Virus record (IMG/VR): IMGVR_UViG_3300021471_000001 | Coordinates: 609-64,608 of that record | DNA: 64,000 nt | Reading direction: 5' to 3' (one strand) | Origin: a virus | Lineage: Duplodnaviria; Caudoviricetes | Part shown: in pieces, positions 41,254 to 60,323 of the stretch | Numbering within the stretch: position 1 is the stretch's first letter | Layout of the letters: each line of letters begins with the position of its first letter | The notes under the pieces: generated by a model | Told to the model about the DNA's origin: nothing | Database searches by the model: none | The model's input: the letters and a program-made list of their open reading frames with translations, nothing else | Position numbers and translations under genes: made by a program

Positions 41254-41949
41254 TTAAAAATATCTAAGTTTCCAACTTAACACATTGTCTATTTCTGGAC
41301 AACCATAAGCTAAAAACTCTGGGTCAAAAAGCGTTGTGAAACGTACTTTATCCCATCCCACGACAGGTGAATACTTGTCGTAGTAACTAATATAAGGAAT
41401 GCCGTTTTCTACTATGTAGCCCCACACATCAAGCCACGTCAAATCTCGGATAGGAAAAACTTCTTTCATTTCCGTTAAAGAACGACCTGAAGTTATTCTC
41501 AACCGTCTTTTTATGCTTTCTTCTTTTCTCAAACCGACAAAACAACAATCATATCCTTCTTTTATCAATCTAGGAATTAATCCCTTGATTAAATCCATTC
41601 CTATCACGTTTGTAGCTTTTCGTTTTAATTTATCGTACAACTCGGAAGTCTCTACACGTAAGTTTTCTACGCCTATCTTTTTTGCATTTTCCATTATTTC
41701 ATTGAAATACACTCTCGGCATATAATACTTTCCGTAATCCCAATGTAAAACCATTATGTCTTTTTGCTGTTCTATAATCATGTGTAACATAACGGTTGAG
41801 TCCTTTCCTCCAGAGAAAGCGACGTAAGACTTGTTATATTTCTTTAAGCTCTTTTTCACAATATCTTTAGCATTATCTATTCTCTCTCTATACTCTTCTG
41901 TTGTACTATGTAAAGCAAAAGTTTCTCTTATTCTTTCTTCCATAACCAT
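41254..41949 (-). CDS. cysH: CysH-like PAPS reductase family protein associated with type IV-B
   Basis: YVAFSGGKDSTV, FVGLRKEESIKRR, PIRDLTWLDVWGYI; last gene of the csf operon. Confidence 0.85.
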   Translation of the reverse strand: MVMEERIRETFALHSTTEEYRERIDNAKDIVKKSLKKYNKSYVAFSGGKDSTVMLHMIIEQQKDIMVLHWDYGKYYMPRVYFNEIMENAKKIGVENLRVETSELYDKLKRKATNVIGMDLIKGLIPRLIKEGYDCCFVGLRKEESIKRRLRITSGRSLTEMKEVFPIRDLTWLDVWGYIVENGIPYISYYDKYSPVVGWDKVRFTTLFDPEFLAYGCPEIDNVLSWKLRYF

Positions 41950-42587: not shown

Positions 42588-43237
42588 CTTTTTCTTTTTT
42601 TTCTTATTCTTTTTCTCTTCCATATCTTTACACTCCTTTCTTTTAGAAAATCTCTCTTTAATTTTTCTAAGTCAGTAACGCCAAAAGTCCTTGACTGTCT
42701 TTTAGAAGAACGTCTAGGATTGATTGAAGACCTTCCTACCCTATGATCTACCAAATTAGGTACAACAATCCAATATCTCATTTTCTTCTTACGCAAAACC
42801 CAAGCAACAAATAAATCTGTCCCCGTCGGATTCTTACCACTATCATATACTTTCCAGCTTTCATAATATTCTAACAGTTCTTTTGACAATCCCATAGGCA
42901 AATAAAAACACACGCTACACATAAAAGAACCGCCTGAACAATATCTACTGCCTATCAATATATCATCTTTCCTTCTTGAAAAGAATTGTATAACTTCATT
43001 TGGTCTTTTATCTATTTCTACACTAACTTTATCCAAAAAATTATCACACAATATAACATCGTCTTCCAAATGCAAGCATGGATATGACTTTGCAAGCTTC
43101 AACGCTTCTAAAAACGTGTCCATAGCATTCTTTGTTTTATCATAACAGTATATTGTGTCTTCTGGTAAATGATTCCGCAAATATTCTATGTACGGTTCTC
43201 TTTTCTTAACACATTTAACAATTATTTTATAATTCAA
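42584..43237 (-). CDS. Glycosyltransferase-like protein (GT-A fold)
   Basis: CLHLEDDVILC acidic metal-binding motif and VPNLVDHR late His motif. Confidence 0.6.
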   Translation of the reverse strand: MNYKIIVKCVKKREPYIEYLRNHLPEDTIYCYDKTKNAMDTFLEALKLAKSYPCLHLEDDVILCDNFLDKVSVEIDKRPNEVIQFFSRRKDDILIGSRYCSGGSFMCSVCFYLPMGLSKELLEYYESWKVYDSGKNPTGTDLFVAWVLRKKKMRYWIVVPNLVDHRVGRSSINPRRSSKRQSRTFGVTDLEKLKRDFLKERSVKIWKRKRIRKKRKR

Positions 43238-43967
43238 TTTCTATCTCCTCTTTTGGAATGCAACAAATATCCACATTTTCAGGAGACCAGTACGGTGGCT
43301 TCCAAGCTACATTCACAACTCTTTTACATTTCTTTAAATATCGTCTCGGAATAGGTCTCATCGCCTTGCCATCTTTGATTAAACTATAATCTTTATCTGT
43401 ACTCTTAATCTCAAAACCACTTACAGCACCATAACCAACACGACAATTATCTCCCAAACCCACAATCAAAGAACACAAATACTCCATCGCCTTTCTATCC
43501 GCATTAACATAAAAGCTTACTGTCCTAGTCGGTATATATATATGTCTCATCATATAATCCCTAAAGTGACCACTACCTTTACTTATTTTTCTATGTCCTT
43601 TTATCCATCTATCCTCAAACTTCTTGTACAACACTTCCATTTTTAAGCTATCAGTATCGAAAAAAGAAATCGAACTATGGTATAAATCACCATGAGAAAG
43701 CTTTATTGGACTTTCTGGTAAATCATTTTTATTTATCACTCGAAATAAATTAAACTTACGTGGAAGCAAATAATAATCTTTCCCTAAATACTTCAATAGA
43801 AGCAAATGTCCAATTAGTCCATCGAAGTTTAACCAAGCATGATTCAATGCTATTGGTGAGGACATATAAAAAATTATCTCCATAGGAGTATATTTCATAG
43901 GTTTTGCATTCCGATTAATCGCTTCTACATACTTTTTTGCAAAATATTTTATTTCATCAATTATCAT
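43227..43967 (-). CDS. csf3: Type IV CRISPR Cas5-like subunit Csf3
   Basis: MSSPIAL...LNFDGLI, GSGHFRDY, G-rich loop LGDNCRVGYGAV, MRPIP, WKPPYW. Confidence 0.85.
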   Translation of the reverse strand: MIIDEIKYFAKKYVEAINRNAKPMKYTPMEIIFYMSSPIALNHAWLNFDGLIGHLLLLKYLGKDYYLLPRKFNLFRVINKNDLPESPIKLSHGDLYHSSISFFDTDSLKMEVLYKKFEDRWIKGHRKISKGSGHFRDYMMRHIYIPTRTVSFYVNADRKAMEYLCSLIVGLGDNCRVGYGAVSGFEIKSTDKDYSLIKDGKAMRPIPRRYLKKCKRVVNVAWKPPYWSPENVDICCIPKEEIEIEL

Positions 43968-44806
43968 TTTCCCTTTCCTAACTTTGCAATTAATTCAATT
44001 AATAAATCTTTGTTACTTTCTACAAAGCTAATATACGCCTTACTATCGCTAATCTGTGGTCTATAGTCAAAAGACACTTCGCCATCACCTGTTGAACTTT
44101 TTCCACCAACAAATGGTGACTTTCTGAATAGCTCAATCACTCTTCCAAAACACGACTTTTCTAATTCCGTTGCCCACTCGAGTGAGAACCAGTGATAAAA
44201 CTTTGTTCCTATACCAAAGCACTCATAGTCAACTTTCATCTGTTGAGCCTGCTCATCCTTCTCTCTATCGGCTTTTAAGTCGTCCTTACGTGTATGAAAG
44301 CTTTCGTCAGTAAATTCTTTCACGTTTTTATTTACTCTTTCGTCTTGTTTATATTGTTCAGGTAGGTATATATAATATTCTTTGCAGATTGGAAAAGCAT
44401 GTCCGACTTTCAAAATTCCTGGTATCATTTGATTTCCTATTGCACAGCCAAAAACGGCAAGTGGTATAATCAAATCTCTTATTTCAGTACGCATTTTCAG
44501 GTCTATGGTTGCGTAATTATCCTCTGTACTCTCTAATACACCACCTGTGAAGAATGTATGATATAGCTTTACTGGAAGTTTATCAACCTCAAATCCAAGC
44601 AGTTCTAGAAAGTCTTTCATAATAAGACGTCTTAGCTTCCCCCTTATAGCATTGCCATGCAAGTATGGAAATGGTATTTCACCCATTCCATCAACGTAAA
44701 GGTAGATTGTCCTTAACACTGGTGTTGAACCAGTCTTTTCATTACCACCGTGATGTATTGGAGACTTCGCTAGAAGCCATCCTTCGTACTTTTGAATTAT
44801 TTTCAT
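43964..44806 (-). CDS. csf2: Type IV CRISPR Cas7-like backbone Csf2
   Basis: AKSPIHHG, PYLHGNAIRGKLRR, FTGGVL, LAVFGCAIGNQMIPGILKVG, VGGKSSTGDGEV. Confidence 0.92.
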   Translation of the reverse strand: MKIIQKYEGWLLAKSPIHHGGNEKTGSTPVLRTIYLYVDGMGEIPFPYLHGNAIRGKLRRLIMKDFLELLGFEVDKLPVKLYHTFFTGGVLESTEDNYATIDLKMRTEIRDLIIPLAVFGCAIGNQMIPGILKVGHAFPICKEYYIYLPEQYKQDERVNKNVKEFTDESFHTRKDDLKADREKDEQAQQMKVDYECFGIGTKFYHWFSLEWATELEKSCFGRVIELFRKSPFVGGKSSTGDGEVSFDYRPQISDSKAYISFVESNKDLLIELIAKLGKGK

Positions 44807-45213
44807 TCTTTTACCTCCTCTGTCTTTTTTTGTTCATACATATCTTGTATGTCTATATCAAATGTAGGTTTACTTTTCCTACTACTTTTAATCTCTTTTC
44901 CCTTTATGATAGCTCTTACACAAAAGGGAATGTGTTCAGAATAAAGCCTAGTAAGTACATAGACCTCATCCTTTCTTAAATCTTCGACTAATCCTATACT
45001 TTCACCTGGTAGGGTCTGCAAACCAAAGTAATTACATAACTTACTTGCAAAAGCATAGATAGTCCCTCGTCTAGAAGCCGATCTAACACGGTGATTAAAT
45101 ATATCGTGCGGATTCTTAGACGTTTTCATACTATGCCAATTTATCTTACTGTATACCACAGCGAGTAAATCGACAAGCGTATCTTCTAAAACCTTTTTCC
45201 TATTTGGAGACAT
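44803..45213 (-). CDS. cas11: Type IV-B small subunit (Cas11/Csf4-like)
   Basis: 136-aa helical protein between csf1 and csf2, the canonical IV-B position. Confidence 0.7.
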   Translation of the reverse strand: MSPNRKKVLEDTLVDLLAVVYSKINWHSMKTSKNPHDIFNHRVRSASRRGTIYAFASKLCNYFGLQTLPGESIGLVEDLRKDEVYVLTRLYSEHIPFCVRAIIKGKEIKSSRKSKPTFDIDIQDMYEQKKTEEVKE

Positions 45214-45808
45214 AAGCTAACAACTCCCATAATGGATTTCTAATAAATGGTTTGGCACTTTCTATTAAGAAATACCAACCCTTTTCCATAGCTAGCCTTG
45301 AGTTTTTCATTGTTAATTCACCTCTAATTATTTCTGACTTTGAGACTTTATTCTCACGAAGCCTACATATTAGGTTGTGATAAGTCTTCACGTCACTTTG
45401 ATTAACTAAAAAACTCCCGAGCCAGTCTGTGGAAACATAAAAATGAACGTTATCAAAGTTAATTCTTTGTAAGGAATCGAGCCACCCTTGTTTTTGGTAG
45501 CTCTTTGTAACATATAAAAAGAATGGAACAGGTTTTTCTCTCAATAAGGTCTCCAAAACCTCTTCTCTCTTTAAAAATACAACACTTTCCTCAGTAGCAA
45601 ACCACGATTTCTTACGATAGTTCTGATTCCTAAAGAAATGATAACAATATTCACAAGTTACACCGCCATTTTTCAAGTATGAGTATCCTGTAAAACTGTT
45701 TGAGAATGGCAAATCAAAACCATTATTCGTCTCTTTACCACATACACAACAATAGCCAGATTTATCTCCTATTTCTGGACTTCTAATAACCAATTCTGTA
45801 ACTATCAT
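45200..45808 (-). CDS. csf1: Type IV large subunit Csf1 (Cas8-like)
   Basis: CCVCG...FSNSFTGYSYL...VTCEYC Zn finger; PFFLYVTKSYQKQGW. Confidence 0.8.
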   Translation of the reverse strand: MIVTELVIRSPEIGDKSGYCCVCGKETNNGFDLPFSNSFTGYSYLKNGGVTCEYCYHFFRNQNYRKKSWFATEESVVFLKREEVLETLLREKPVPFFLYVTKSYQKQGWLDSLQRINFDNVHFYVSTDWLGSFLVNQSDVKTYHNLICRLRENKVSKSEIIRGELTMKNSRLAMEKGWYFLIESAKPFIRNPLWELLAYVSK

Positions 45809-48614: not shown

Positions 48615-49307
48615 TTAATAATTCATCCTCATTTTCAAAACAAAGCTTGATACAATGTTAAAAATACTTGTAATAAATAAAATTAAACTTTCTAAAACTT
48701 CTTCTTTCTTCTCGTAGGCAAAATTAAAACGATTATAAGCATCAAGCACAGCCGTCAAGGACGAAACAAAGCCATCATAAAAGTTTTCACCCTTATCAAA
48801 ATTAAAAAATTTTGCTAAATCTTTTTCATACATAGAAATATTTATATTAAAATGCTTAACACTTTTTCTAAAGCTTGGTATAATTTCTGATACAGTTATC
48901 AATTCACCATTACTAATAACCTTATCTATGTAATGTTCAGAATCATCTTTATTACAACCACTTTTATCATTTCTTGTTTTTAAAACATGCTTTAATACTG
49001 CATTATATAAACCAGACATAACCTCAAAAACCTGTGCAACAACAGTTTTATAGTCTTCAAATTTATTTAAAGCATTTGTCAAACATAAAAATACATGATG
49101 AACTGATGAAATAAAACCTTCATAGAAAATATCGTCCTTTTCGAAAAGCATAAATTCCCTAGAAATATGGTCTCTATTTACACTTATATCTGGAACGTAT
49201 GGGACCTTCTCTTTTGCAAGCTTTAATTCACTATTCAGAAGCTTAAAATCAAGTTCGGATAGCATTCTATCACTATTAAAAGCTTTAATCTCTCTTCTAT
49301 TACTCAT
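48615..49307 (-). CDS. Paralogous family member with two tandem domains
   Basis: FEKDDIFYEGF...HVLKTR and FDKGENFYDGF...FVLKMR. Confidence 0.65.
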   Translation of the reverse strand: MSNRREIKAFNSDRMLSELDFKLLNSELKLAKEKVPYVPDISVNRDHISREFMLFEKDDIFYEGFISSVHHVFLCLTNALNKFEDYKTVVAQVFEVMSGLYNAVLKHVLKTRNDKSGCNKDDSEHYIDKVISNGELITVSEIIPSFRKSVKHFNINISMYEKDLAKFFNFDKGENFYDGFVSSLTAVLDAYNRFNFAYEKKEEVLESLILFITSIFNIVSSFVLKMRMNY

Positions 49308-50703
49308 TTTCTTTTACTCCTTCATCATTATACTTATGTGGATAGTAATCTCTAAGACATTTCTCTTCCCATTCTTCATCTGTCATCAGACTAGGATCGG
49401 TCTTTCTCTTTTCTATATACTCTGCCTTTAAGTTAGAATATTTCCTTAGTAGTATAGAAGGAATTAATTCGTATTTATACCAATCTTTCTTCAGTGCAAA
49501 ATTGACAATCCTACGAAACAAATCTCTATCTTTTTCTATTCTAGCAATATAACGGAATTGTCCTATTTCAGATATTGTAAGAGAGCAATAGAAACCGTGC
49601 ACTTCTTTCCACTCTTCAAAATATATTTTCCTTAAGTCTTCTGAAAGCTTTTTTTCTAAACTTTTCTTACCTTTTCCATTTCTAGAAGGTTTAAGTACTT
49701 TACTTGCTTCTTCAAAAAGATATTCTGTACTAGTATTAACATTATCTTTACTTTGACTTACTTTTTCTATACTACTAGTACTAGAATCTATGTTATGGGA
49801 ACTAGTACCTAGAGTAGAGTCTATGTTAGAAGTACAAGTTGTACTAGATTCCTTAGTACTAGAGTCTTTGCTAGAAGAACTAGATTCTTTAGGTCTAGTT
49901 GTACTAGATTCTCTAGTAGATCTAGATCTACTAGAAGTACTAGAAGATTCATCAACTTTTTCTTTAGAAAAAGTTGATGGTTTTTCTTTATTTTTTTTTC
50001 TAGATCTTTCTTTATATTCTTTATTTCTAGTTTCTTTAGGATTCTCGAAATGCTTTTCAGAAAAGCTTTTTTGCGGTGTAACTTGTGTATTTTTTACACA
50101 AGTTATTAATCCTTTGTCAATCCCGTTTTCGAAGACATCGAGTTTGTTATCACTGTCTGGTTGCTGATTCCCAACTTGTGTATTTTTTACACAAGTTTTG
50201 TGTAAACTTTCCCCAAGTTGGCTTTTATCTTTGACACTGTCTTTAGAGTAATCTTGTTCCATTTTGTTGTTCTCTGATAAAGATTTTTCAGGTTGTGTAT
50301 TTTTTACACAAGTTGTTTCCTTGCTTTCAATTTCTTTTTTCGGAGTTGCAACGTCTATTTTGTTGTTGGAGACTTTATCTTCAACTTGTGTAATATTTAC
50401 ACAAGTTTGATTTCCTCTTTTCTCACTTGTGTAATATTTACACAAGTTTATTATACGCCCCTGTCCCTGTCTTGTTTTCACTTCTATTATACCTTTTCTT
50501 TTTAATTCAGAAAGACATTTTGTAATCGTCTTATTATTCAATCCAGTTTCAGAAATGAGTTTACAATTTGTTAATTTTGTTCCTCTTCTTTGAAAGCCAT
50601 TCGTATATCGAAATATTATGAAAAGTAGTTTCGTAGCATTTCCTGAAAGGTGAATTAAATCTTTTTTATCGATCAAATCATTATCAAACATAGTAAAGCC
50701 CAT
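49300..50703 (-). CDS. Phage replication initiator (lambda O-like organisation)
   Basis: N-terminal wHTH (LSGNATKLLFIIFRYTNGF...TGLNNKTITKCLSELKRKGII), iteron-encoded linker, upstream of a DnaC-like gene. Confidence 0.8.
   Translation of the reverse strand: MGFTMFDNDLIDKKDLIHLSGNATKLLFIIFRYTNGFQRRGTKLTNCKLISETGLNNKTITKCLSELKRKGIIEVKTRQGQGRIINLCKYYTSEKRGNQTCVNITQVEDKVSNNKIDVATPKKEIESKETTCVKNTQPEKSLSENNKMEQDYSKDSVKDKSQLGESLHKTCVKNTQVGNQQPDSDNKLDVFENGIDKGLITCVKNTQVTPQKSFSEKHFENPKETRNKEYKERSRKKNKEKPSTFSKEKVDESSSTSSRSRSTRESSTTRPKESSSSSKDSSTKESSTTCTSNIDSTLGTSSHNIDSSTSSIEKVSQSKDNVNTSTEYLFEEASKVLKPSRNGKGKKSLEKKLSEDLRKIYFEEWKEVHGFYCSLTISEIGQFRYIARIEKDRDLFRRIVNFALKKDWYKYELIPSILLRKYSNLKAEYIEKRKTDPSLMTDEEWEEKCLRDYYPHKYNDEGVKENE
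50080..50448. repeat. Five 25-bp palindromic iterons; putative replication origin
   Basis: AACTTGTGTA-N5-TACACAAGTT-type copies at 50080, 50173, 50290, 50383 and 50424. Confidence 0.85.
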
Positions 50704-56392: not shown

Positions 56393-57130
56393 TTAATGGA
56401 ACCACAAACACATTTCATTATCAGGCGTATCTTTTTCAAAAAACTTGTGTTTATATATTTTCGCTTCCATAATCTCCCATACTCTTTTTTCACATTTAAC
56501 AGTGTCTTTGTATTTTATACATTCTTCTTTGTCACAGTTATGATTCCAATATCCATATGCTCTTCTGACCTCTGCACTTATTTTTTCAACTCCACCTTCC
56601 ATTTTCTTTTCCCCAAAAAGATGTATATAGTTCAGATTATTTTTGAGCATATATTCTTTAACCTTTTCAGGAGTTCCTTCTGGAAATTCCAATCCTTTTT
56701 CGTCTTTTTCCATTTTGCAAGTATCCATTCGCAAAAAATCCACTTCTTCATTCAACAACGCTTTTCCAATTTCTTTTTTTTGGGCTTCTTCTTTTTCTTC
56801 TTCTTCTTTTTCTTTTCTTTCTTTTTCTTCTCTTTCTCTTTCTTTTGCTTCATCCCATACTTTGAAATAACTATTATCTTCTATAGTTCCAACTAATTTT
56901 CCGTTTATATAACATTTTTTACGAAACATTTGAAAACTTTTAATTTCCAAATCCTCTTCAACTTTAATAAAACGGGAGCCCTCTTCTTGAGCGATTCTTT
57001 TTATTTCACTTCCACCTTTACCTATCCATTTCCCTGCAGTGTGTTTTTGTACGTGTAATGTGTTTTTATTTTTATTAAGTAATCCAAAATCTTCTCTCAA
57101 ATTTGTAACTACTTTTTTTAAAACTTTCAT
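56393..57130 (-). CDS. KH-domain (RNA-binding) protein
   Basis: AGKWIGKGGSEIKRIAQEEG matches the KH GxxG signature. Confidence 0.65.
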   Translation of the reverse strand: MKVLKKVVTNLREDFGLLNKNKNTLHVQKHTAGKWIGKGGSEIKRIAQEEGSRFIKVEEDLEIKSFQMFRKKCYINGKLVGTIEDNSYFKVWDEAKEREREEKERKEKEEEEKEEAQKKEIGKALLNEEVDFLRMDTCKMEKDEKGLEFPEGTPEKVKEYMLKNNLNYIHLFGEKKMEGGVEKISAEVRRAYGYWNHNCDKEECIKYKDTVKCEKRVWEIMEAKIYKHKFFEKDTPDNEMCLWFH

Positions 57131-57792: not shown

Positions 57793-57929
57793 TTTGATTG
57801 AACTATTGGATTGAATTTGGTAGGTGAAGCCCCCTTTCGGGGGCGTACGTACGTATTTTGGGTTGTCCTACCTTCATTCAACCCCGTACAGGTAGGATAA
57901 TGCGGGGTTTAACGAAGGAAAAGGTAAGT

Positions 57930-58322
57930 CTATTCTGGATTTGGTATTTCTGTTAAAATAGCCGGGACATGTGCTGTAAGACAATCTTCATAAGCAACTT
58001 GTTCCCCTTCTTCTTCATATGTATCATAAAAATACTGGTAGGCCGTAAGGCTGCCAGTATATTCCCCGTCCCTGTGTAGGTTTGGGGAAAGTAATATGTG
58101 ATCAACTTCAGGTTCATCTGGATCAGGCTCGGGGGACGGCTCCCCGGCCTCCTTAGCCCAGGCGAGCTTTTCAAATAAGGGAAGGATGTCCTCTATCTTG
58201 ACAATGAAAAGTGTAATTATTGTTTTTTTAACTATATATTTATCTGTAAAATAAATAAATTTTTCTCCCCTCTCCCAAAGGTCTTTTAGAAAAGGGAGTC
58301 CATATTTTCTTGTTATAATCAT
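57930..58322 (-). CDS. Small acidic protein (anti-defence candidate)
   Basis: AGGAGGG RBS; acidic C-terminal half; lies in the repeat cassette. Confidence 0.65.
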   Translation of the reverse strand: MIITRKYGLPFLKDLWERGEKFIYFTDKYIVKKTIITLFIVKIEDILPLFEKLAWAKEAGEPSPEPDPDEPEVDHILLSPNLHRDGEYTGSLTAYQYFYDTYEEEGEQVAYEDCLTAHVPAILTEIPNPE

Positions 58323-58403
58323 GTTACCCTCCTATAGGGTTTTCGGACTTAACTATGACCACAAAGGCGTCCGTAAACCTTCGTAGAAACTACCTTACGG
58401 TAG

Positions 58404-58431
58404 GTTAATCCCTCATAGGGACGATAGAAGC
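58404..58431 (-). repeat. Solitary CRISPR-repeat-like unit 1
   Basis: GCTTCTATCGTCCCTATGAGGGATTAAC; 18-nt core 58408-58425 identical in three copies. Confidence 0.75.
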
Positions 58432-58494
58432 TTGCTACACCCCGCATAGGTAGGAATGCGGTGTGCAGCAAAGGGATTGGCTATTTTCACCACT

Positions 58495-59007
58495 TTACAT
58501 ACTCGAAACATACTCGAATTCCGATTGGAATTCGAGTGTTTTTATAATTCTATCGCAGTACCAACGAATTTCTTTTTTTTCTTTTAAATCTTTTAAAATT
58601 TCTACGATTTTTTTTGCTTGTCGAGGGGAGAGATCGTGGTCGTGGTGGGTGTAATCTTTCTTAATGTAGGCGCTAGCTATGTAATTTGGGTCGAAGGAGC
58701 CATCTTCTCCCAATCGTAGTACTACTACTATATCGGTGGGGGGTGTGATGTGGGGGTGTTTTTCGTCTATAAATCTGTGTTCAGATGGGAGGGTTCCCCC
58801 TTCTCCATCTGGCGAGGGACCTGACCAGCTTTGGTCAAACTCGCTGGCAACGGTAAGCGGGGAGGGGGAGTTGGGTGTGTAAACAAAAGAATAAGAAAAA
58901 TTAATTCTGCCTTGCCCCTGATAGGCTGAATAATCTCTAACATGTACAGAAACTACTATTAGCCCCCCTTTTTTAATAAAGGTGGAAAATAGATTTTTAT
59001 TTTTCAT
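58495..59007 (-). CDS. Hypothetical protein (anti-defence candidate)
   Basis: AGGAGGG RBS; lies between repeat units 1 and 2. Confidence 0.65.
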   Translation of the reverse strand: MKNKNLFSTFIKKGGLIVVSVHVRDYSAYQGQGRINFSYSFVYTPNSPSPLTVASEFDQSWSGPSPDGEGGTLPSEHRFIDEKHPHITPPTDIVVVLRLGEDGSFDPNYIASAYIKKDYTHHDHDLSPRQAKKIVEILKDLKEKKEIRWYCDRIIKTLEFQSEFEYVSSM

Positions 59008-59086
59008 ATTACCCTCCTAGGGTTTTCACCTTTGTTTACGACTACTCGGGCAGGTGTAAACCCAAGCAGAAGCCCTCATACGAAGG

Positions 59087-59115
59087 GTTTATCCCTCATA
59101 GGGACGATGTAAAAC
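59087..59115 (-). repeat. Solitary CRISPR-repeat-like unit 2
   Basis: GTTTTACATCGTCCCTATGAGGGATAAAC, with GTTT...AAAC ends. Confidence 0.8.
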
Positions 59116-59158
59116 CCCTTTCCGCTTAGGTAGGACAGCGGGAAGAGGTTTTGGGTGA

Positions 59159-59356
59159 CTAATAAACGAGGGCGTCTTTCTTTTCCGAATAGACGCACTC
59201 ACAGGTTGGAATTTGGTGGTATGCAGTGTGGCTTTCGCCAGCATCTGCATACCACCAGTCAATTATAATGTCCTGGTCGTCTACGACAGGGTAGACGCCT
59301 AGGATAGGAAAATTTATGCTGGAAAGGGGCTTCCCCAAAAATTTTTCTAATTTCAT
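59159..59356 (-). CDS. Small acidic protein (anti-defence candidate)
   Basis: GAGGT RBS; flanked by 65-bp direct repeats. Confidence 0.65.
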   Translation of the reverse strand: MKLEKFLGKPLSSINFPILGVYPVVDDQDIIIDWWYADAGESHTAYHQIPTCECVYSEKKDALVY

Positions 59357-59407
59357 ATCTTATACCTCTTTTTTTTTAATTTTTTTGGTAGGGGCAAAGA
59401 GCCCCAA

Positions 59408-59472
59408 ATCCCTCATAGGGACGATGTAAAACCCCTTTCCGCTTAGGTAGGATAGCGGGAAGAGGTTTTGGG
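59408..59472 (-). repeat. Solitary CRISPR-repeat-like unit 3 plus upstream hairpin
   Basis: 64/65 identical to 59091-59155. Confidence 0.85.
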
Positions 59473-59484
59473 CGGTATGAAAGG

Positions 59485-59727
59485 CTATATGATTATGTCC
59501 TCTGCAAAACTGTGGGCTTTATTTAGCCAGTAATATTTTTTGTGACTTCGATTGGAAGCCCAAAAATGGTATTGATTAAACAGTTGTTGGAGTTGGTCTA
59601 GTTTATTTTTTAATTCTAATTCTTCTGGAGGCAGTTCTGGTGGCGGGGATGATGTAGCGGCAATTTTGTCTCGACCTACCCATAGGGTAGTTTGAATATA
59701 TTTTTCTTTATTTTCAATCTTTTTCAT
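59485..59727 (-). CDS. Hypothetical protein, first gene of the early cassette
   Basis: 29-bp RBS/start region (59722-59750) identical to that of 59159-59356 (59351-59379). Confidence 0.65.
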   Translation of the reverse strand: MKKIENKEKYIQTTLWVGRDKIAATSSPPPELPPEELELKNKLDQLQQLFNQYHFWASNRSHKKYYWLNKAHSFAEDIII

Positions 59728-59829
59728 ATCTTATACCTCTTTTTTTTTAAATATTTTGTGGGGACAAAGCCCCAAAGGATTGGAAACAAAAAAAACCCAG
59801 TCACCCGTTTCTTCTGTTTCGGTGCTGGG

Positions 59830-60320
59830 GTTTGGGGAAGAATTTTTTTTGTAATTTTTTTCTATCGTTTCCATGCCATATAATATTGCAATATATATAC
59901 CACCACGCCATATTTTTTACCTATTTTTTACACAAATCGTACAAACAACATAAACATAACAATTTACATAAACACAAAAAATTAAAAAGCAAAATGCAAG
60001 TATGCCAACTTTACAAAAATTTGTCTAAATATTTTACATAATTCAACCACATTTTTTACACAATTTTAATCGAAATGCATTCATATATCGTTCCAAATAG
60101 CAAAAGCACCGTGTCTAAAATCTTTACATATACACAAAAAATATGTCTATTATTTTTACATAAAAATGCACAGCAAATTGTCGTTATTATCTTTTACACA
60201 TTTTATAGAAGAATCTCCAAAATGCAATGTAGAAAAGGATAAGCAAAGTGTAAGTAATAGATACATATATGTAATCACCACTTACACTTTTGAAAAGAGT
60301 AGGAGTAGTATTATGTTTTA
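59830..60320. promoter_or_regulatory. AT-rich control region with seven co-oriented TTTACAYA motifs
   Basis: Motifs at 59927, 59963, 60033, 60055, 60123, 60155 and 60193; boundary between late and early gene blocks. Confidence 0.5.
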
Positions 60321-60323
60321 AAA

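Follow-up and report, generated by a model that had tools for sequence, protein, structure and literature searches.

Three copies of an 18-nt core between small genes

We analysed a 64,000-nucleotide stretch of phage DNA (the window), positions 609 to 64,608 of the IMG/VR virus record IMGVR_UViG_3300021471_000001. The window is nearly the whole of this 64,608-bp record, which carries direct terminal repeats at its ends. Its GC content is about 0.33, and the minus strand carries nearly all genes. Four small genes on the minus strand, named gA to gD, are separated by three intergenic regions (IG1 to IG3), and each of these contains one copy of an 18-nt core, ATCGTCCCTATGAGGGAT. The core resembles part of a CRISPR repeat, and the three copies are referred to as solitary repeat units (SRUs). 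On the minus strand the order is gA, SRU1, gB, SRU2, gC, SRU3 and gD. Coordinates are given in Table 1.

The three copies match the core exactly, and no further copy was found in the window at up to three mismatches. The chance expectation was 0.02, and none of 100 shuffled sequences reached three matches. Apart from a set of origin-like iterons, the core was the only exact repeat of at least 15 nt with three copies in the window. Every copy is intergenic, with a stop codon on one side and the next ribosome-binding site on the other. Neighbouring copies are 683 and 317 bp apart, with open reading frames (ORFs) between them. An earlier note, made from the sequence alone, had placed the core at 58408, 59091 and 59408 on the minus strand, each in the leader of a small gene and at these spacings. 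All of this was borne out, and copy 2 reads in the window as the note had written it.

Each pair of copies is identical at 18 of 18 positions. Over 45 aligned columns on either side of the core, pairwise identity was only 9–25 of 45, except upstream of the core in IG1 and IG2, where 41 of 42 positions agree. IG1 and IG2 have a 65-nt module in common (98% identity), which looks like a recent duplication. Because the core is invariant in all three copies amid diverging flanks, the alignment argues for selection on the core. A unit is counted as solitary when no partial repeat lies in its 100-bp flanks; SRU2 has a degenerate look-alike hairpin downstream at a shorter distance (Table 1).

The leaders were then folded as RNA. 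Each leader folds in three parts, with z values of -4.2 to -4.6, and none of 200 shuffles folded as well. The first part is a long hairpin (hairpin 1) with UCCUACCU in its loop. After 5–9 unpaired nt, which include the AUC of the core, comes the core's own 6-bp hairpin, GUCCCU/AUG/AGGGAU. The third part is a further hairpin, which starts 4–5 nt past the predicted Cas6 cut described below. The hairpin 1 stems are fully compensated between IG3 and IG1/IG2, and UUUU follows hairpin 1 in IG1 and IG2. A fourth hairpin with the same loop lies after gD. An exact 8-nt complement of the loop occurs only at this fourth hairpin, where the fold places part of the complement in an outer stem. A pseudoknot between the hairpin 1 loop and downstream sequence was considered. 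The post-cut hairpin of SRU1, together with its ribosome-binding site, has a second copy upstream of gA. In the window, Rfam gave no match at the gathering score and no tRNA was found. A metagenome search for the hairpin 1 loop followed by the SRU hairpin returned two matches, both inside high-GC coding sequence, and these were set aside as chance.

Cellular arrays and other viruses with the core

Genomes were scanned, one per prokaryotic species, with the core left degenerate at two positions, and at least 120 loci were found. The counts in this paragraph are among the matches listed. Ninety loci were array-like, with core matches 60–75 nt apart. Named by the letters at the two degenerate positions, the A..A variant was array-like at 40 of 56 loci (Anoxybacillus, Thermoactinomyces, Acetivibrio, a Thermotogae metagenome-assembled genome (MAG) and others) and the A..G variant at 18 of 23 (Geobacillus, Paenibacillaceae MAGs and Brevibacillus MAGs). 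The phage's own variant, C..G, was array-like at 32 of 37 loci. The C..A variant gave four singletons and no array, and acts as an internal control. Thirty-five of the 37 C..G loci came from one MAG of candidate division WOR-3; the other two were single and outside arrays, leaving the WOR-3 MAG as the only source of C..G arrays.

The WOR-3 MAG (1.5 Mb) contains 609 copies of the core, compared with none for the reversed control. Its 30-nt repeat, GTTTTTATCGTCCCTATGAGGGATTGAAAC, accounts for 451 of the 458 copies in the loci fetched from the MAG, and the phage core is identical to it at 18 of 18 positions. Among 19 genomes of its order, the MAG included, one other genome has a single core copy. 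The MAG has a GC content of 0.32–0.37 and its repeat loci 0.30–0.39, compared with 0.33 for the phage. The MAG encodes one Cas6 (PF01881, E 1e-29; TIGR01877, 108 bits against a cut-off of 58.65), whose nearest solved relatives are Pyrococcus-type enzymes. A type I-B set of Cas8b/Csh1, Cas7/Csh2, Cas4, Cas1b and Cas2 lies on one contig, and a Cas5b fragment and Cas3 lie at the start of another. The Csm1 model reached just 26.9 bits against a cut-off of 170. A search of the MAG for hairpin 1 gave no match. Judged by these sequence matches, the 18-nt core is a genuine CRISPR-repeat core. The earlier note had already read the core as a CRISPR-repeat mimic, and had named a relative matching at 16 of 18 positions. 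The WOR-3 match is the stronger one, and the relative named in the note turned up as the A..A variant in arrays of an Acetivibrio MAG (L032, L062).

Three features of the WOR-3 MAG were observed in passing. Its cas6 gene (G001:C1:3135-4007) stands alone next to rpsO-pnp, apart from the other cas genes. Its arrays adjoin housekeeping genes (topA, gyrB, ftsZ) and lie at many contig ends. On contig 9 (L103:2536-2941) a near-full repeat comes 307 bp after a full one, with a degenerate repeat behind it at the usual distance; this long-spacer arrangement adjoins a DNA methyltransferase gene.

The repeat comparison that the note had proposed also gives a host prediction for this uncultivated phage. 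On the basis of the repeat and the similar GC, the predicted host is a WOR-3 bacterium with a type I-B CRISPR system, such as MAG SKYB27 or one of its near relatives.

The WOR-3 repeat ends in ATTGAAAC. This is the 8-nt 5′ tag reported for type I-B CRISPR RNAs (crRNAs) in two species, M. maripaludis and C. thermocellum, whose Cas6 cut lies 8 nt ahead of the spacer (PMC3479195, PMC5965381). The repeat end therefore sets the phage units in sense orientation on the operon RNA. By the 8-nt tag rule, Cas6 is predicted to cut at 59410/59409 in SRU1, 59093/59092 in SRU2 and 58410/58409 in SRU3. The units keep the G|AU context at this point, and the identities in Table 1 are from ungapped alignment with GTTTTTATCGTCCCTATGAGGGATTGAAAC. 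The tags after the predicted cut, ATTTGGGG, ATAAACCC and ATTAACCT, are scrambled, so that the handle that would be needed by Cas5 and Cas8 is lost. Sense orientation, a degenerate 3′ handle and a new hairpin right after the expected cut had all been read in the earlier note, and the tag rule and the folds agree with it on each.

In BLAST against the repeat, the phage units scored 40.1, 38.2 and 36.2 bits. The published screen for SRUs (SRUFinder) used a cut-off of 41.1 bits (PMC10651486). Since all three scores are below it, core-only units were probably filtered out of that screen, although its BLAST settings may differ from ours. The published count of viral repeat mimics may in that case be an underestimate.

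The exact core was found in no other IMG/VR contig. With the core degenerate at two positions, the IMG/VR scan gave nine loci. Three records (G003, G004 and G005) have one core-only unit each, in sense, of the sister variants A..G or A..A. Against the WOR-3 repeat with each unit's own letters put in at the two variable core positions, the units of G003, G005 and G004 match at 22, 22 and 19 of 30 positions. Each lies between the stop of a small gene and the next ribosome-binding site, with GC-rich hairpins directly on both sides. G005 is related to G003: they have an 81-aa upstream gene in common, and their downstream genes differ. Two other loci have near-full-length repeats, one solitary (L150) and one in a decaying mini-array (L142), and one locus is a 7-repeat array. 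Two loci in coding sequence look like chance matches, and at the last one, in G002, an 83-aa ORF has the core at its end.

The boundaries of the part that is kept are the same in the window and in G003, G004 and G005. The variants also agree with the GC of the likely hosts, at 0.49–0.55 for A..G and A..A compared with 0.33 for C..G. Of the comparative arguments for the 18-nt unit as the selected, functional part, this is the strongest. The four viral records mark it (AUCG, hairpin and AU) as the part of the I-B repeat family that viruses keep, and make it a candidate minimal Cas6 recognition element.

The type IV-B-like locus and the surroundings of the operon

The phage carries a csf1-cas11-csf2-csf3 locus identified by PADLOC (Table 1). 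No phage protein matched the Cas6 domain PF01881 at E<=1, and no CRISPR array or array-like repeat family was found in the window. These results support the earlier note's reading of a phage type IV-B system without cas6 and without an array. The Pfam family PAPS_reduct was matched by 2 of 87 phage proteins; judged by its BrxP-like match, the protein at 41254-41949 is one of them. A distance of 12 kb separates the SRUs from the csf genes.

Five IMG/VR viral contigs (L172-L176) encode a Csf2 with 55–63% identity to that of the phage. Two of the five are complete records (48–51 kb, GC 0.46–0.48; Csf2 identity 55–59%), and no multi-copy repeat-like units were found in these two. We also observed that type IV-B-like loci are present in several unrelated phages. 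When the core was loosened, the five Csf2 contigs gave one match with one mismatch; it lies in high-GC sequence, by eye coding on the opposite strand, and was dismissed as chance. The earlier note had proposed a check for co-occurrence of such repeats with IV-B loci. This went against a link: a type IV Cas7 was found in none of the five other viral records with SRUs of the repeat family, four of which are fragments. Mimics and a IV-B locus in one phage nevertheless make a concrete system for the question of the RNA partner of IV-B complexes, with no evidence of a link found here.

Table 1. Coordinates of the features in the window, with core-only units of other viral records
Feature	Position	Strand	Remarks
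AT-rich non-coding stretch	59880..60323	-	upstream of gA; about 440 bp; repeated promoter-/operator-like motifs
gA	59485..59727	-	80 aa; no family
IG1 hairpin 1	59428..59469	-	15-bp stem, UCCUACCU in loop, then UUUU; fold z -4.24
SRU1	59408..59425	-	18-nt core, exact; 22/30 to WOR-3 repeat
SRU1 hairpin GUCCCU/AUG/AGGGAU	59408-59422	-	from fold
Post-cut hairpin, SRU1	59391..59405	-	starts 4 nt after predicted cut; upstream of gB ribosome-binding site
gB	59159..59356	-	65 aa; no family
IG2 hairpin 1	59111..59152	-	from fold; in 65-nt module common to IG1
SRU2	59091..59108	-	18-nt core, exact; 23/30 to WOR-3 repeat
Degenerate look-alike hairpin after SRU2	59073-59087	-	20 nt downstream; 74% over 19 nt
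gC	58495..59007	-	170 aa; orphan, self match only among 5.8 billion proteins (near lengths searched)
IG3 hairpin 1	58432..58471	-	stem sequence wholly unlike IG1/IG2; pairing and loop kept
SRU3	58408..58425	-	18-nt core; 24/30 to WOR-3 repeat, including a 20-nt exact stretch
Post-cut hairpin, SRU3	58390..58403	-	starts 5 nt after predicted cut; from fold
gD	57930..58322	-	130 aa; orphan, self match only among 5.8 billion proteins (near lengths searched)
Fourth hairpin, same loop, no SRU	57871..57918	-	after gD; exact complement AGGUAGGA follows
csf1	45200-45808	-	PADLOC E 3e-34
cas11	44803-45213	-	PADLOC E 4e-34
csf2	43964-44806	-	PADLOC E 2e-70
csf3	43227-43967	-	PADLOC E 2e-52
PAPS-reductase-like gene	41254-41949		two genes downstream of csf locus; BrxP-like, E 9e-9
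Core-only unit, viral record G003	L149	sense	
Core-only unit, viral record G005	L146	sense	
Core-only unit, viral record G004	L148	sense	

The structure models of gC and gD in the Atlas were poor (predicted local distance difference test, pLDDT, 0.38 and 0.42) and gave no usable match. The 221-aa and 170-aa proteins had no relatives in IMG/VR. The 4-kb region gave no match to the GenBank phage collection in distant mode. The AT-rich stretch upstream of gA is presumed, from its sequence, to be the operon start. A terminator-like hairpin followed by eight U was observed immediately before the gA leader (59757-59800, minus strand), in a 47-aa ORF that is itself doubtful, and this may be an attenuator at the operon head.

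Several sequence features of the region were also observed. The motif CCUACC, in the sense RNA, has 8 of its 12 window copies within 1.7 kb (57800-59500, minus strand). Four of the eight are in the hairpin 1 loops, two are about 30 nt upstream of starts (as CCUACCAAA), one is in a hairpin stem and one is in gD. The motif may be protein-binding or anti-Shine-Dalgarno-like. Just downstream of the operon, a 245-aa protein (56393-57130, minus strand) matches the KH RNA-binding domain (PF00013, E 8e-5) at 22.8 bits, the cut-off being 21.5, and may be a partner of the conserved RNA loops. Both gC and gD have their ribosome-binding site (59012-59027 and 58330-58345, minus strand) within a small hairpin similar to that of the SRUs (ACCCU-AGG-AGGGU and ACCCU-AUAGG-AGGGU).

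The bin 58001-60000 is the sole 2-kb bin with GC above 0.4 (0.405) and positive GC skew. This suggests either a small-gene cassette of foreign origin or a composition shaped by the region's own RNA structures. At 50068-50449, inside the ORF 49300-50703, are five copies of a 22–25-nt palindrome (ACTTGTGTA..TTTACACAAGT), like origin iterons within a replication gene. Its half-sites also occur in the AT-rich sequence at 59900-60200. A Phage_rep_O match is present in the phage genome, with no ORF assigned to it.

Possible functions and comparison with known systems

We consider it highly probable that the three units are true mimics of the host repeat, and, from their sequence, probable that host Cas6 binds or cuts them. 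In the mechanism that we favour, the units would be transcribed in sense on one polycistronic RNA with the four small orphan genes. Host Cas6 would recognise AUCG and the 6-bp hairpin and would cut after GGG. With a scrambled 8-nt tag after the cut, the downstream RNA would be unable to seed a working Cascade, and the upstream piece would terminate in a Cas6-bound hairpin. The units would act as decoys of the RNA anti-CRISPR (Racr) type within an apparent anti-defence operon, and early in infection they would occupy Cas6 and perhaps Cas7. Cutting would incidentally divide the operon RNA into pieces, with hairpin 1 as the 3′ cap and another hairpin as the 5′ cap. Anti-defence genes are often orphans, like the four cargo genes. 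That such an anti-CRISPR decoy is the main selected function of the units is a tentative proposal, which we regard as a good possibility rather than an expectation.

A number of results weigh against this proposal. The first 10 nt of the repeat are only partly kept in the phage units (7, 7 and 8 of 10). P. furiosus Cas6 recognises the first 10 nt of its repeat (PMC5965381). As the 5′ third is only partly kept and the host enzyme is of the Pyrococcus type, Cas6 binding to the phage units could be weak. Three sites per transcript would compete with about 600 host repeats, and hairpin 1 would stand in the way of a Cas7 filament like that of RacrIF1. Nearby genes included no acr or aca homologue, and the four genes and six neighbours had no credible Pfam match and no PHROG match, the KH domain excepted. 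None of 417 unique spacers from 37 MAG loci matches the phage, the best being 25 nt at 88%. BLAST of window positions 1-60000 against the MAG and its order (19 genomes; best 15 candidates per genome) gave SRU-repeat and chance-level matches only. With no spacer match and no other BLAST match, the host link rests on repeat and GC.

The points against a simple sponge (about 600 host repeats, hairpin 1, a Pyrococcus-type Cas6 and no spacer link) favour a rival in which host Cas6 is hijacked to mature the phage operon. In each cassette a Cas6 site would stand between a 3′ stabiliser hairpin and a 5′ hairpin, and any decoy effect would be secondary. Cutting would give stable monocistronic pieces or free ribosome-binding sites, and cargo expression would depend on active host CRISPR. 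All three units, and all three core-only units of other viruses, fit this arrangement in lying between a stop and a ribosome-binding site with stable hairpins on both sides, although a non-coding element within an operon must be intercistronic anyway. In the phage a hairpin begins 4–5 nt downstream of the predicted cut. With 609 repeats in 1.5 Mb, Cas6 would be a dependable host enzyme and three sites a poor sponge. The pyrimidine-rich loop UCCUACCU has, by inference, 5-nt complementarity to each downstream Shine-Dalgarno region. Against this rival, the phage would rely on a dispensable host gene. No natural Cas6-dependent processing of a phage operon was found in the literature searched, and we know of no such case. 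We rate processing as possible, if rather unlikely; the decoy and processing models are compatible with each other. A further-reaching version is more doubtful. It holds that the phage made host Cas6 its operon-processing enzyme, that boxed core-only mimics cut early RNA into monocistronic units and make counter-defence cargo conditional on active host CRISPR, and that the cassette recurs in unrelated phages of thermophiles as a class missed by earlier screens.

The remaining rivals are less probable. A Cas-independent element (a terminator, a nut/put-like antiterminator, an RNase III site or a DNA operator), with its CRISPR likeness due to chance, would account for the unit being a small palindrome and for the UUUU after hairpin 1 in IG1 and IG2. 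Multi-hairpin intercistronic sites are also known in T7 early RNA. However, chance is very unlikely to produce an 18/18 match with a repeat core, the sister variants in other phages correspond to the repeats of other hosts, and no Rfam family was found at threshold; we hold this reading to be very improbable. The units might instead have no function as RNA and be decaying relics of an array captured from the host, or short stretches of homology that serve recombination with its arrays. At one place (L103) the host chromosome too carries repeats at a distance of 307 bp, and repeat-like sequences can mediate integration into arrays (PMC10651486). The invariant core (18/18 in three copies against 9–25/45 in the flanks) points instead to selection. 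The fully compensated stems of hairpin 1 and the identical core-only boundaries in unrelated viruses also argue against a relic, and 18 nt is short for homologous recombination. A relic or recombination site is improbable. In the last rival, cutting by host Cas6 would supply the RNAs with which the phage's type IV-B Csf complex is loaded. This would suit a phage with csf1, cas11, csf2 and csf3 and with no Cas6 match or array, and the RNA source of type IV-B complexes is described as an open question (PMC8175902). Against it, the tags AUUUGGGG, AUAAACCC and AUUAACCU have no common handle, and the 12-kb distance, the absence of type IV Cas7 from the five other SRU records (four fragments) and the absence of multi-copy repeat-like units from the two complete Csf2 records also speak against it. 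We find such loading very improbable.

Camara-Wilpert et al. 2023 (PMC10651486) describe Racrs as solitary repeat units. According to that source, Cas6f binds and cuts RacrIF1, inhibition persists when its 5′ handle is mutated, and the inhibitor is the upstream product; racr candidates are found in clusters with acr genes, and AcrIC5-RacrIC1 is transcribed as a single RNA. Like a Racr, each phage unit is a virus-borne mimic of a repeat, intergenic among small genes and of the subtype of the likely host; the units are solitary as well, for SRU2 provided that the look-alike hairpin is not counted as a partial repeat. The units lie on a mobile element (a virus record with terminal repeats), and the MAG with the identical repeat core has type I-B genes and a Cas6, the host link being from repeat and GC only. 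Their degenerate handle compares with the dispensable or absent handle of Racrs, and their place among small genes with the known acr-racr cotranscript. Unlike Racrs, they keep only the 18-nt core (22–24 of 30 positions), occur as three copies per operon and have conserved flanking hairpins. Type I-B is also not among the four subtypes tested for Racrs in PMC10651486, and the role of the phage units is read from sequence.

Cracr arrays (bioRxiv 10.1101/2024.10.29.618823) likewise place several repeat-like units one after another on a phage, and host Cas6 processes them there. As that source describes them, their handles are intact and their short pseudo-spacers are complementary to promoters of cas or creT, whereas the phage units have scrambled handles and gene-holding 'spacers' of 317 and 683 bp. 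The phage region showed no Cracr-like complementarity to 39 kb of host cas loci (L125, L133, L134), with A-tract matches only. Type IV-B CRISPR-Cas (PMC8175902, PMC7937560) resembles the phage locus in its csf1, cas11, csf2, csf3 and PAPS-reductase-like genes, in having no array and in the lack of a Cas6 match. This locus belongs to the surroundings of the units and is not part of them, and no link was found.

Viral mini-CRISPR arrays place host-type repeats on a virus, as in the phage. Unlike them, the phage units have no 30–40-nt spacers and no intact repeats, and ORFs lie between them, so that they do not form an array. RNase III sites between T7 early genes and engineered Csy4/Cas6 sites between cistrons are hairpin sites that cut operon RNA into stable pieces. 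The phage units are likewise intercistronic hairpins; the enzyme would be a host CRISPR nuclease acting in a natural phage. The earlier note had called the combination undescribed. This was too strong, because solitary repeat units, their clustering with acr genes and the acr-racr bicistron are in print (PMC10651486). The literature searched contained no three core-only units in one operon, no flanking-hairpin cassette and no co-occurrence with a phage IV-B locus. Compared with known Racr-like units, what is new here is that the units are core-only, triplicated in one operon, boxed by hairpins, of type I-B with a predicted WOR-3 host, and carried by a phage with a IV-B locus.

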